A stretch of 25,911 nt of DNA from a virus (IMGVR_UViG_3300012232_000245:1-25911), one strand, 5' to 3'. Counted from the stretch's first letter, positions 4,121 through 19,935 are shown. Numbers and translations are program-made. The notes: generated by a model from the sequence alone, not told the origin.

Positions 4121-4293
4121 CCTTCACCGAGCACCTGGGGATGGAGTGCTTCAAACTCTGCGGCACGTGGCGGCAGGTACCCGGCTACGTGTTCCGTGTC
4201 CTCGTCATGGTGCACTTCCCGGTCAAGCAGGTGTTCCAACAGAAGCCGTTCAAGGAGATCAGCTGGGAATGTCGGTGCGGGGCTAAGTCATGA
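4117..4293 (+). CDS. hypothetical protein (58 aa, MTFTEHLGMECFKLCG...WECRCGAKS), not in the ORF track
   Basis: Translated by hand; exactly fills the gap with ATGA overlaps at 4117-4120 and 4290-4293; four Cys in two pairs. Confidence 0.72.
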   Translation: MTFTEHLGMECFKLCGTWRQVPGYVFRVLVMVHFPVKQVFQQKPFKEISWECRCGAKS

Positions 4294-6479
4294 TCTTCCT
4301 CGACTCTGAGACCGCAGGGTTCGTCGGTCCCGCTGTCATCTGGCAGTGGGCCGTCGACGACGGTCCGGTGGCGGTGCACCACGTCTGGCGCCGACCGGTC
4401 CGCGAGACCCTGGAGCTCATTGAGCGGTTCGCGGGAGCGAAGATCTGCGGCTTCAACCTGCCGTTCGACTGGTACATGGCGAACAAAGACTACAACGTCC
4501 TCCGCCTGTTTGAGGACTGCAGCTCCCTACCGACGATCAATGAGTGGAAGGCGAAGGAGCTACGTGGATCGAGGGAGGCGCTCTGTGTCAAACCGCAGGC
4601 TGCTCTTGATCTGTACCTCTACGCCTTGCGAGGCCCGCTGCAGGTGCTCCTTGATCGAGATGACATCCGGATCAAGCGCGTACCCAGGGTCCTGGCCGAG
4701 CTGCTTTGTCGGGAGCTGGCCGACCGGGTACAGCTCGACCAGATCTTCTTCAAGTATGGCGAGTCTTGGTTTGTGGACGACGAAGACGACGCCGATTACC
4801 CGGACATCATCCTGAAGTTTGGTGCCACCGCCGCCCTCAAGCCGATCGTGAAGTACGTCCTGAAGCTCGACGTCGTGGACTTCCCGGTCCCACCCGAACT
4901 GATGACCAAGGATGACAAGAAGGGGAAGGCGAGTACCACCTGGTTCCCATGGCACGTCCGACGTGACTGGTTGGAGAAGCTGCCGGGTCTCATCGAGTTC
5001 TGGTGGAAGTACGGTGGCCAGTACGCGGAAGAAGACATCCGCCACCTGCAGCGGCTCCACAATCATTGGGGCAAACCGGAGGCCGGAGATGACGACTCAA
5101 CTCTCGCCTGCTCTGTGGCTGCAGCTCGCTGGCGCGGGTTCGCCCTCAACCGGGACGCAGCTAAGCCTCTCTGGCAATCCCAAGTTGAGCTCGCTCGATC
5201 CGCTCCTCGATCCCCGAACGCTGTGCGAGCGGGGTTGCTGCCTCTACTGTCAGACGTTGAAGCACTTGCTGTGCAGAACACAAAGGCCGACACCCTCGAG
5301 GCAATCGTCCACTGGAACAATGACGGAACGCGAAGTGGCATCAATGAGGACGGTACTCCAATCGTCGGCACTCATCCAGCTGCGCAATTCGCTAACCGAG
5401 TCTCTGTTGCCCGGACTGCCCAGAAGCGAGCTGACCTCGCCGGTAAGCTATGGCGAGTTGGTTCGTTTCATCCAGACTTCAAGGTCCTTGGGGCGAAGTC
5501 CGCTCGAATGTCTGGCGCTGGTGGCCTCAATGCACAGGGCATTGATAACTGGGCACCCATGCGATCCTTGTTTCTACTCGCGTTCCCCGGTGAGTGTCTT
5601 TCAGGAGGAGACTTCATCTCCTTCGAGCCGTTCATCGGCGACGCGGTCTACAACGACCCGAACCTCCGACGAGATCTCAGAAGCGGCAAGAAGATCCACG
5701 GACTCTTCGGCGAGATGGCCTACGAGATGGACTACTCGATCGTCGTCGCGAACAAAGCGGCGGGCTCGATCTACGACCGCGCGAAGAAAGGGTACCTCGC
5801 GTTCTCCTACGGGGCGCAAGCGTTCAAGCTGAGCAAGGTGCTCGACATGGAGGAAAAGAAGGTCCAAGCCTTCTTCATGAAGCTCGGTCAGCGTTACCCG
5901 GAGATGCTGAAGTATCGTGAACGCCGTGCGATGGAGTTCTGCTCCATGCGACAACCCAGAGGGATCGGTACGCGGGTCGTGTGGGTGGATCCCCGGGACT
6001 ACGTTGAGTCACTCCTCGGTGACCGCCGGTACTTCACCTTGGAGAACAAGATCTGCAAGGCGCTGTTCGATCTAGCGCAGGACATGCCTGAGGCCTTCCA
6101 CGCGCTCGGTCGCTTCCAGGTGAAGCGCCGTGACCGTACGCAGACCGCGACCGGTGCGACCCAGTCCGCGCTCTACGCCGCTGCCTTCGGGATCCAGGGT
6201 TCCAACATGCGAGCGGCCCTGAACCACGAGATCCAGTCCACCGGCGCCCGCATCACGAAGGCCACTCAGCGCCGGGTTGAGGATCTCCAACCCTGTGGGA
6301 TCCATCCGTTCCGCGTCCGCCACATGCAGTCTCACGACGAGATCCAGGTCGTACACGACAACATCGCTGATGAAGTCAAGGGTGCGGTCGATGGTGCCAT
6401 CGAGTTCTACAAACCCAAGATCCCGCTTCTCGCCATCGACTGGCGGATGAAGCTCAACGACTGGAGCGAGATGAAATGA
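4290..6479 (+). CDS. polA: family A DNA polymerase with N-terminal 3'-5' exonuclease
   Basis: ExoI FLDSET, ExoII GFNLPFD, ExoIII YAEED; motif A GDFISFE, motif B AKKGYLAFSYG, NHEIQSTGA, motif C SHDEI. Confidence 0.93.
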   Translation: MIFLDSETAGFVGPAVIWQWAVDDGPVAVHHVWRRPVRETLELIERFAGAKICGFNLPFDWYMANKDYNVLRLFEDCSSLPTINEWKAKELRGSREALCVKPQAALDLYLYALRGPLQVLLDRDDIRIKRVPRVLAELLCRELADRVQLDQIFFKYGESWFVDDEDDADYPDIILKFGATAALKPIVKYVLKLDVVDFPVPPELMTKDDKKGKASTTWFPWHVRRDWLEKLPGLIEFWWKYGGQYAEEDIRHLQRLHNHWGKPEAGDDDSTLACSVAAARWRGFALNRDAAKPLWQSQVELARSAPRSPNAVRAGLLPLLSDVEALAVQNTKADTLEAIVHWNNDGTRSGINEDGTPIVGTHPAAQFANRVSVARTAQKRADLAGKLWRVGSFHPDFKVLGAKSARMSGAGGLNAQGIDNWAPMRSLFLLAFPGECLSGGDFISFEPFIGDAVYNDPNLRRDLRSGKKIHGLFGEMAYEMDYSIVVANKAAGSIYDRAKKGYLAFSYGAQAFKLSKVLDMEEKKVQAFFMKLGQRYPEMLKYRERRAMEFCSMRQPRGIGTRVVWVDPRDYVESLLGDRRYFTLENKICKALFDLAQDMPEAFHALGRFQVKRRDRTQTATGATQSALYAAAFGIQGSNMRAALNHEIQSTGARITKATQRRVEDLQPCGIHPFRVRHMQSHDEIQVVHDNIADEVKGAVDGAIEFYKPKIPLLAIDWRMKLNDWSEMK
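5089..5832 (+). CDS. candidate overprinted gene in the +1 frame of the polymerase (247 aa, MTTQLSPALWLQL...)
   Basis: GGAGG at 5078-5082, 6 nt before ATG; frame is stop-free from 4906 to the stop at 5830-5832; polymerase third-position A/T rises sharply at this start. Confidence 0.62.
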   Translation: MTTQLSPALWLQLAGAGSPSTGTQLSLSGNPKLSSLDPLLDPRTLCERGCCLYCQTLKHLLCRTQRPTPSRQSSTGTMTEREVASMRTVLQSSALIQLRNSLTESLLPGLPRSELTSPVSYGELVRFIQTSRSLGRSPLECLALVASMHRALITGHPCDPCFYSRSPVSVFQEETSSPSSRSSATRSTTTRTSDEISEAARRSTDSSARWPTRWTTRSSSRTKRRARSTTARRKGTSRSPTGRKRSS

Positions 6480-8768: not shown

Positions 8769-8931
8769 CACTGAGGTCCTGAGACAAGACGCCAAGTTGA
8801 AGTACCGCTTCTTCGACCTCCCGGAGCCGATCCGGACAGGTCACTACGCGGAGTTCAACCGCTTGTGCGACGAGCACCGCTGGCACGAGGCCGAGATGAT
8901 GGTGGAGAAGTTGGAGAAGCAGGCCAAATGA
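8761..8931 (+). CDS. hypothetical protein (56 aa, MASTEVLRQDAK...EKLEKQAK), not in the ORF track
   Basis: Translated by hand; fills the gap and ends in an ATGA overlap with 8928. Confidence 0.7.
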   Translation: MASTEVLRQDAKLKYRFFDLPEPIRTGHYAEFNRLCDEHRWHEAEMMVEKLEKQAK

Positions 8932-9830
8932 AGTCCATCACCCTCACGATGCCGTGCGGCCTGGGCGACTGCCACTGGGTCCTGCAACGAATGCGGGCCT
9001 TCCGGCAGTGGCTTGAGCAGCAACACGGCGAGGTCCATCTGGTTGCCCACATCGCCCATGACGAGCACCACAAGAGCACCGAGTTCGTGGAACTCACCGA
9101 CTTCTTCGATGCAACCGTGGAGGACGCCGATGGGATGCGTGGTGTTCGGGATCACCTGAACCCTAAGTTCGCCACGATTACCGGTAGCATCGGCAAGGAC
9201 TCCAAGTCCGGTGGCGCCCACCTGGACTACGCGTTCCAGGCGAACGGCCACCTGGAGCGAGGCCTCCGCATCGAGACGTGGCTCCCGGAGCTGGGTTCGC
9301 TGGACTACACCTATCCGATCCACATCCCACCTGGGACGCTGGCGATGGGTGGGTTCTCCGAGGAACCGCGGATCCTGCTGTATCCCTCCGGCACCGGCCC
9401 GAACAACTACTTCAAGAGCTACTGGACCCGCGACCAGTGGCAGGCGATCGTCAACCTGTTGAACTTCCACGGCCTACGTCCGACGTTCGTGGGCGCGAAC
9501 ACCAGGGACGACACGGGTTACTGGAACAGCCTCAAGCTGACCGGTGACTTCGAGGACCTGATCGGCAAGACCAACCTCCACCAGTACCTCGCCCTAATCC
9601 TCAACTGCCGGGTGTGGATGGGGTTGAACTCCGGTGGTGGGATCATCTCCGGGTCACAGGGTCGTCACACCATCATGCTCTGGTCCGACGCCGAGTATGG
9701 TGGTCGTCTTCACCCGAACATGGCCACGTCCTGGCTCCCGTTGAACCAGGACTGGTATCGCTCGTTCTCCTACGGCAAGAAGGGCATGGAACAAGAAGCC
9801 GCAGATCGGCTTGTGGAGGTGCTGCGATGA
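8928..9830 (+). CDS. GT-B glycosyltransferase, GT9 (heptosyltransferase)-like
   Basis: N-terminal GLGD motif, KSYWTRDQWQAIVNLL, DLIGKTNLHQYLALI..C...MGLNSG.......G..TIMLW parallel the GT9 consensus. Confidence 0.82.
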   Translation: MKSITLTMPCGLGDCHWVLQRMRAFRQWLEQQHGEVHLVAHIAHDEHHKSTEFVELTDFFDATVEDADGMRGVRDHLNPKFATITGSIGKDSKSGGAHLDYAFQANGHLERGLRIETWLPELGSLDYTYPIHIPPGTLAMGGFSEEPRILLYPSGTGPNNYFKSYWTRDQWQAIVNLLNFHGLRPTFVGANTRDDTGYWNSLKLTGDFEDLIGKTNLHQYLALILNCRVWMGLNSGGGIISGSQGRHTIMLWSDAEYGGRLHPNMATSWLPLNQDWYRSFSYGKKGMEQEAADRLVEVLR

Positions 9831-18951: not shown

Positions 18952-19935
18952 TTAGCTCGCCGTCGTGTTGAGGGTGTAGGTGAGCTTCAGCGTGTCGCCG
19001 TTGCTGACCGTCTGGTTGCCGCCCGAGAAGGTCGCGGTCATGAACAGCGTGCCGGTGGTGCCGGACTTCGTGGACGAGGAGGTGAGGAACCCGCCCGCCA
19101 CCGTGCCGGAACCGTTCATCGAGAAGTCCGACGTCACCGAGTTCGTCATCGAACCCGCGGCCGCCGCTCCCTCGTCCCACGCGACGCGGTTGGTCTGGGA
19201 GTACGTGGTGTACTCCGTCCAGCCCGCGTGCGAGCCCATCGTGTCGGCGGCCGCGAGCGTCGGGGCGCTCGAGCCGTTGATCAGGCCGAGGTACCACGTC
19301 GTCACCTGCGTGCCGGAGTTGAAGCCGGCGTCGAGGACGTAGTTGAGACCCACGGTGGTGATGCCGTTCAGGTCCATCACCCCGGTGGACTTCACCTGGC
19401 CGGCGACGTCGTACAGCGTGTACGAGATCCCACCACCGAGGGCGAGGATGGCCGCGATGCCCTGTCGGATCGCGAACCGCTTCATGATCCCGTAGGGCAC
19501 GAAGTTCAACATGCCCCGGAGGAACGCGTGCGCCTGACGCGCCAGCCAGTTCCACCCGAGGATCAGCTTCGTTCCGAGCCAGCGGAACGCGCCGCTGGTC
19601 GCCTGCTGCTCGAGCTCCGCCCGCGTGATGAGCCTCTGGTCTTCCAGCAGCGAAAGGCGCGTCGCCTCGGTTGCGACGGACTCGTCGCCGAGTTCCTCCG
19701 CCGCCGACTTGACGAGCATGAGCTTGCTCTTGCGGATGCGCTCCTGTCGCGCCGCCATCCGGACCGCGAGGTCCTGGACGCGCCTCTCCTCTTGCGCCGG
19801 CGTCAGGCGAACGACCTGAGCGTCCAGCGTGACCATCTGGCTGCGAAGACGCAACCTTCCATCCTTCGCCGCGCGGGACTCGACTCGCCGTCGCTCCCGC
19901 TCGGCCTCTTCCTCGGGCGTCAGGTGACGGCCCAT
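18952..19935 (-). CDS. virion structural protein (putative fibre subunit) with long N-terminal extension
   Basis: GGAGGTG RBS; C-terminal NGITTVG...WYLGLI...GWTE...R..W...F...GDTLKLTY beta-rich domain familiar from phage tail regions; very strong codon bias. Confidence 0.75.
   Translation of the reverse strand: MGRHLTPEEEAERERRRVESRAAKDGRLRLRSQMVTLDAQVVRLTPAQEERRVQDLAVRMAARQERIRKSKLMLVKSAAEELGDESVATEATRLSLLEDQRLITRAELEQQATSGAFRWLGTKLILGWNWLARQAHAFLRGMLNFVPYGIMKRFAIRQGIAAILALGGGISYTLYDVAGQVKSTGVMDLNGITTVGLNYVLDAGFNSGTQVTTWYLGLINGSSAPTLAAADTMGSHAGWTEYTTYSQTNRVAWDEGAAAAGSMTNSVTSDFSMNGSGTVAGGFLTSSSTKSGTTGTLFMTATFSGGNQTVSNGDTLKLTYTLNTTAS

Follow-up and report, generated by a model that had tools for sequence, protein, structure and literature searches.

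Does the DNA polymerase gene of this phage conceal a second gene in its +1 frame, and if so, what might that gene encode? The window, the whole 25,911-nucleotide stretch analysed here, is a 25.9 kb phage fragment with an estimated completeness of 48% that carries helicase, HNH, glycosylase, polymerase, ligase and tail genes. The original prediction proposed that an anomalous run of polymerase codons marks a separately translated protein, possibly zinc-binding. Our comparisons suggest that an unannotated gene is probably real in the clade to which the window belongs. The proposal of a hidden +1 gene under selection was borne out, whereas zinc binding, a conserved SD-ATG at 5089, the C-terminal tail and the alternative of a frameshift fusion were not.

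Codon shift and open +1 frame in the window

The host frame encodes a 729 aa family A DNA polymerase that has 301 homologues among 8000 proteins scored and whose profile aligns to solved Pol I chains. All codon numbers below are those of the window polymerase, codon n starting at 4290+3(n-1). The features discussed in the text are as follows.

4290..6479, + strand: 729-aa DNA polymerase of family A, forming the older host frame (PF00476, E 2e-10)
4906..5832, + strand: stop-to-stop +1 frame within the polymerase gene, with 308 open codons followed by a stop; the bounding stops are at 4903 and 5830
5023..5025 (codon 245), + strand: ATG common to four relatives, reading ACG in the window
5078..5091, + strand: GGAGG and ATG 5089, the likeliest start in this genome (anti-SD pairing -9.5 kcal/mol)
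5089..5319, + strand: variable N-terminal part of the hidden frame, holding the first Cys cluster; open and A/T-shifted in all five genomes
5316..5366 (codons 343-359), + strand: 17-residue polymerase insertion, a clade marker containing the beginning of the conserved core
5320..5610, + strand: conserved core of the putative hidden protein, about 95 aa, recognised by invariant codons, with fallback starts at ATG 5320 and ATG 5344
5425..5553, + strand: predicted strand-helix-helix unit, ribbon-helix-helix (RHH)-like, placed from AF2 helices, fold matches and profile register
5527..5545, no strand: perfect inverted repeat (7-5-7) without variation among the five genomes, covering 4 of 23 invariant codons
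5611..5832, + strand: Ser/Arg/Thr tail specific to this genome, in which A/T-ending codons drop to 8/74

A recount reproduced exactly the A/T-ending polymerase codons that had drawn attention to the locus (78/174 over 5088-5609, against 13/87 over 4800-5060 and 8/74 over 5610-5831). The excess relative to the rest of the polymerase gene gave a Fisher p of 2e-11, and against resampled codon usage of the same gene the shift reached z = 5.0 over codons 267-343 and z = 6.6 over codons 344-448. In a sliding analysis the best 90-codon interval was 0.49 A/T-ending, compared with at most 0.41 in nine other long ORFs of the window. The +1 frame had been described as open for more than 300 codons in a gene where stops are otherwise common in that frame, and we confirmed 308 open codons: 14 +1 stops occur over the whole polymerase gene, none of them between 4903 and 5830, and the remaining frames of both strands are all interrupted within the region. 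As described, the 247-aa translation from 5089 contains Cys/His words and a Ser/Arg/Thr tail. Within 4700-6000 no sigma-70 promoter was found. For the window alone the probability of finding no +1 stop over codons 235-448 was 0.054, which makes the open frame mildly unusual. Since the open frame of a single genome is only marginal evidence, the case for a hidden gene draws its strength from comparison.

Three other features of the window deserve mention. An HNH endonuclease gene lies at 1921-2304, between the helicase and glycosylase genes; it is probably mobile, because the equivalent interval in the genome G002 measures about 240 bases, too short for an HNH gene. After the ligase gene, at 8865-9830, is a glycosyltransferase family 9-like gene (E 5e-5) for which no counterpart was found among the G002 ORFs compared. 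On the minus strand, 18952-19935 contains a second same-strand frame without a stop across all 328 codons; with just 8% A/T-ending codons, this open frame is probably a by-product.

Distribution and conservation of the hidden frame

A protein search with the polymerase recovered close relatives (70-91% identity), a pair of sisters (57-61%) and many more proteins at about 40%. A quick tree built from 36 proteins united the ten close polymerases in a clade with support 98, in which the window and the genomes L001-L004 occupied separate basal branches. DNA covered five of the ten members, P0002-P0006 being known as protein. The nucleotide comparison comprised four distinct close genomes (L001-L004, 70-71% identity to the window) and 73 usable distant genes, and left aside L005 and L007 (each either the window or identical to it), L006, L011 and L012-L015 (duplicates), and L021 and L035 (short frame). 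As L001, L002 and L004 are mutually 91-96% alike, the five genomes represent about three lineages. The 17-residue insertion is present in P0001-P0008 and missing from P0009-P0016 in the protein alignment.

The +1 frame is open over codons 235-448 in all five close genomes versus none of the 73 distant polymerase genes, a set that includes some near-copies and excludes the nearest sisters, P0009-P0019. Over codons 344-448 it is open in one of the 73. The A/T-ending fraction of codons 344-440 is 0.49-0.57 in the clade and at most 0.31 in 26 distant genes of similar GC3. Avoidance of +1 stops, one of the checks originally suggested, was evident in the close genomes: TGA-capable junctions are realised at 0/42 positions inside the segment (0/21 in codons 235-343 and 0/21 in codons 344-448) versus 51/133 outside, with p 0.03-0.04 when taken genome by genome. 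Six environmental contigs of at least 80% identity added substitutions, and no +1 stop was seen among 40 of the 42 differences listed; the contigs from runs X6 and X14, whose RNA origin is a guess, served for variants only. A query with a single polymerase found no locus in viral contigs or annotated phages, nor did the close-clade alignment when searched against GTDB genomes. With a clade of five sequenced loci on one side and 73 broken-frame relatives on the other, the new frame has a narrower distribution than the polymerase frame, and the polymerase frame is far older than the hidden +1 frame.

Long +1 open runs of 212 and 208 codons were also noted in the distant polymerases L046 and L048 (codons 463-671) and L009 (codons 413-597). 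At motif B of the polymerase (window 5784-5812, codons 499-507) a Leu is common to P0001-P0010 and a Phe occurs in P0011 and P0012. We take this Leu to be the equivalent of E. coli position 762. According to one study, Leu762 is associated with temperate phages (PMC6302109). Despite the Leu762-type polymerase, no tyrosine integrase or serine recombinase matches were found in two complete relatives.

Suppressed synonymous variation, another of the suggested checks, was seen in the core codons. Among sites at which all five genomes share a degenerate residue, A/T-ending codons were invariant at 23/69 in codons 344-448 versus 7/369 elsewhere (p 9e-15, for sites that are not independent of ancestry). 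Of these 23 codons 18 end in T, which yields Leu, Ile, Val, Phe or Met in the +1 frame; two environmental contigs differ at codon 376, one of the "invariant" set. Between pairs of genomes, A/T third bases were retained at 0.78 in the core, 0.49 in codons 235-343 and 0.34-0.37 in the flanks, and in a control clade of 42 members and similar depth retention was flat at 0.29-0.32. The +1 protein of the core is 63-66% identical to that of the relatives, and the +1 residues shift from 13% to 34% LIVFM and from 3% to 11% D/E. Over codons 267-343 the A/T shift persists in each of the five genomes (z 2.5-5.0), with invariant A/T-ending codons at 1/48 sites. The proposal of a protein-like region of about 175 aa is upheld in part: the frame is open and A/T-shifted throughout, but selection concentrates on codons 344-440. 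Tests at the protein level were less telling. NN/NS in the +1 frame was 0.41-0.52 in the core versus 0.55-0.66 outside, a weak difference, and exceeded 1 in codons 267-343 on very few counts; observed +1 changes had a BLOSUM score of -1.06 versus -1.13 expected, giving no clear protein-level signal. On the comparative evidence, the constraint on the +1 frame likely reflects protein coding by a clade-specific overprinted gene.

The putative gene appears to begin at different places in different genomes. In the window, GGAGG lies at 5078-5082, six bases upstream of ATG 5089 as described, and provides the strongest anti-SD pairing ahead of any +1 ATG, GTG or TTG over codons 200-370. The expectation that this SD-ATG would be conserved failed: an ATG occurs at codon 267/268 in four of five genomes (L003 has none), and GGAGG at good spacing is private to the window (1/5). 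The relatives would instead use the ATG at codon 245, which is 22 codons before ATG 5089 and is preceded at 7-8 bases by AAGG or GAGGG in L001-L004. In these four genomes a rare A/T-ending codon is kept at 6/17 comparable sites of codons 245-266, beginning at codon 245. The A/T shift sets in at about codon 245 in the relatives and at about 261-267 in the window, each coinciding with its own ATG. A further ATG, at codon 343/344, is found in all five genomes, each via the rarer AAT codon and without an SD; at codon 344 it is replaced by CTG in one environmental contig (96% identical, depth 3.6). No start is common to all genomes and each lineage has a plausible one, and the simplest reading is that the start, preceding a variable N-terminal part, moved between lineages. 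A short product starting at 5320 or 5344 may also be made. At the other end, the +1 stop falls at codon 449 in L001, L003 and L004 (window 5635-5637), at codon 463 in L002 and at codon 514 in the window. The three relatives keep the stop at codon 449 through a rare ATA polymerase codon, and the Ser/Arg/Thr tail of the original prediction is a private extension beyond it.

Candidate fold and competing explanations

Zinc binding had been suggested from two Cys clusters and is unsupported, since neither is conserved. The first retains one invariant Cys in the relatives, dictated by polymerase Leu codons; the second reads CxPC in four genomes and CxPS in L003, its first Cys being forced by polymerase Met-Arg. 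A zinc-binding protein was accordingly rejected, as the ligand Cys/His residues are not conserved. Homologues of the +1 protein were found neither by word-index search nor in Pfam or PHROGs; against PDB sequences the best E was 0.63, the best ESM Atlas value was 0.85-0.86 (low recognition), and Foldseek against viral and PDB structures gave nothing at E 0.001. A profile search of 1.84 billion representatives gave no homologue apart from one hit at E 3e-4, to a 982-aa repeat protein, which we rejected as a match to the core. We also discarded a hidden homing endonuclease of the ShiLan type, as there was no Pfam or PHROG match and the segment is ancestral polymerase sequence.

Structure prediction, which had been proposed as a check, returned a helical core in both AF2 models. 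With five rows as input, helices were placed at residues 3-29, 44-56 and 61-77 (mean pLDDT 54); a single 59-aa piece of L003 again formed the two helices 44-56 and 61-77, with the helical blocks at pLDDT 70-78 (mean of the model 66). DSSP assigned no strand in the monomer models. A structure search of 48,161 chains matched many RHH proteins to residues 37-78 of both models (Z up to 4.7 and 3.9), PutA being aligned over 42/44 residues with Z 4.7 and rmsd 3.2. PutA, TacA1, VapB12, AmrZ, NikR, CopASO, Arc and SvtR appeared in both searches, and unrelated helical chains (amylosucrase, a homeodomain, PKA D/D and Mozart1) ranked equally. In a hydrophobic-moment test one helix, at codon 390, passed the 99th percentile and the remaining helices fell below it; Pfam RHH models had no match to the core at E 10.

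Two complete genomes of the clade carry a stand-alone gene for an RHH-like protein of 83 aa (L089:1399-1650 and L088:1324-1575), outside the part of the genome represented by the window. It has eight homologues and was found in 2/50 records searched, both under the Pfam cut-off. An RHH profile built from this gene aligns to the core without gaps and in register at about 30% identity (hhalign P 0.018-0.053, probability 1-2.5%). The profile gave L001, L002 and L004 scores of 22-29, all higher than the best of 116,585 off-frame windows (18.8) and the best of 58,570 polymerase windows (15.8). On the window it scored 13.8, equalled by 18/2000 shuffles and passing the 99.9th percentile; the score on L003 was weak (5.2, 175/2000 shuffles). 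Because the family was chosen after the likeness had been noticed, the match counts as support and not as proof.

RHH proteins read bases through basic or polar residues of the ribbon and bind a repeated operator. In the core, basic residues are scarce in the putative ribbon, where one Pro is invariant, and acidic and basic residues are about equally numerous over the unit as a whole, with near-neutral charge; by these RHH rules, the ribbon Pro and near-neutral charge would argue against strong DNA binding. From the models, we consider it an even call whether residues 37-78 of the core form a strand-helix-Gly turn-helix unit that pairs as a homodimer.

We lean slightly towards the reading that the +1 frame is a separately translated gene whose core is an RHH-like dimer acting as a regulator. 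Ribosomes could start internally on the polymerase mRNA, at ATG 5089 in the window and at the codon-245 ATG in the relatives, a step whose chances we regard as balanced. The product would consist of a variable N-terminal part followed by a core folding as an RHH-like homodimer. Made off the replication transcript, it might tune phage transcription at the onset of replication, which we regard as doubtful. Its target would be DNA or a second RHH protein with which it pairs, for instance the stand-alone RHH protein of the two complete relatives; the latter option is proposed because the DNA-reading residues look weak. We think it unlikely that convergence produced an RHH DNA-binding fold de novo from the +1 reading of the polymerase thumb-palm motifs and that the product, made from the phage's own replication transcript, now serves as a regulator, perhaps as partner or decoy of the ordinary RHH regulator.

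A rather unlikely alternative is that the hidden gene is real but encodes a small helical protein without relation to the RHH family, such as a factor for host takeover or anti-defence that works by binding proteins; its RHH likeness would then be a coincidence of a widespread helix-turn-helix shape. The conservation evidence fits such a protein equally well, as do Z values of at most 4.7 with unrelated chains interleaved, the lack of any sequence homologue and the weak DNA-binding residues. Overprinted frames also mostly encode accessory proteins (PMC8227390). Against chance likeness stand the gapless RHH-register match, which exceeds all control windows in three of five genomes, and the recovery of the same family on the same residues by two models.

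Improbable, by our estimate, is that the constraint represents a nucleic-acid signal, such as an mRNA structure, operator, origin or nuclease target, with the open +1 frame as a by-product. In its favour are two conserved elements, the invariant 7-5-7 palindrome (5527-5545) and another hairpin near 5436-5457, together with the weak protein-level tests; however, the folding z was -1.49 (16/200 shuffles as good), the covariation term was unfavourable (+3.4), two-sided change occurred in just 4/105 pairs, and a signal would leave unexplained the T bias, the stop avoidance over 214 codons and the stop kept at codon 449 via a rare ATA. As a multi-site operator the palindrome was rejected, because the window and two complete genomes each have one copy of it.

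Fusion of the +1 core to the N-terminal exonuclease part by frameshifting, in the manner of dnaX gamma/tau, had been offered as an alternative in the original prediction and now seems very improbable. It would account for the absence of a start codon common to all genomes and for the sharp onset of conservation near codon 344-355, but inspection of the codon alignment by eye over codons 200-407 revealed no slippery heptamer or A/T run, and the A/T shift begins at each ATG, near codon 245 in the relatives and 261-267 in the window. PMC5009743 reports dnaX and T7 gene 10 frameshifts, with no phage polA case among the matches listed. A recombinant segment from a lower-GC phage or functionless codon-usage drift is largely refuted: the open frame alone has P 0.007-0.10 per clade genome, but the segment is as similar to relatives as its flanks are (0.71-0.74 vs 0.70-0.72, best outgroup 0.46), GC1 and GC2 are not lower, and the shift spans the basal clade split although third positions in codons 267-343 differ at 68% of sites.

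Relation to known systems

It is well known that overprinting yields clade-restricted accessory proteins (PMC8227390), and 30% of annotated viral overlaps are given as fully nested in another survey (PMC7017920). Among the matches listed in a largely open-access literature, we found neither an overprinted gene in phage polA nor an overprinted RHH protein. The locus would offer a dated and testable gene birth by overprinting on a highly constrained stretch of a replicative enzyme, with the ancestral broken frame visible in 73 relatives. Genes of this kind escape annotation by gene callers, and studies of phage polA, a popular marker, that rely on codon usage or dS would be biased by them. Should the RHH fold be correct, a known DNA-binding fold would have emerged anew in an alternative frame, a point of relevance to the de novo origin of folded proteins.

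Same-strand nested genes of phages include lambda Rz1 in Rz, phiX174 E in D and T7 4.2, 18.7 and 19.2. In these, as in the candidate gene, a shorter gene lies wholly inside an older one in a shifted frame with an internal start. The candidate differs in that its host is a DNA polymerase and the overlap falls on conserved thumb-to-palm motifs, and in that its predicted product is helical and soluble, inspection by eye showing neither a membrane segment nor a lipobox. The hepadnavirus surface gene within the polymerase gene is likewise a polymerase overlap with one variable and one conserved part (PMC8227390), but its 3.2 kb genome is that of a reverse-transcribing virus of eukaryotes, whereas the overlap described here belongs to a tailed dsDNA phage of about 54 kb whose polymerase is of family A, and is limited to one small clade. 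ShiLan, an out-of-frame HNH in phage methylases, resembles the candidate as an unannotated out-of-frame gene in a phage enzyme gene that itself keeps an open frame (PMC11855218); ShiLan is an inserted mobile nuclease, whereas the candidate lies on ancestral catalytic sequence, of which only 17 codons are an insertion, and matches neither a nuclease nor any other family. With RHH proteins (PF01402; PutA52, Arc, CopG, AmrZ, antitoxin N-domains and SvtR) the core would share a predicted strand, two helices and a Gly turn at the same spacing, but it differs from them in having no Pfam match, a Pro in the ribbon, few basic residues and an extra N-terminal helix. An RHH gene inherited in the usual sense is impossible, because the same bases encode ancestral polymerase motifs.
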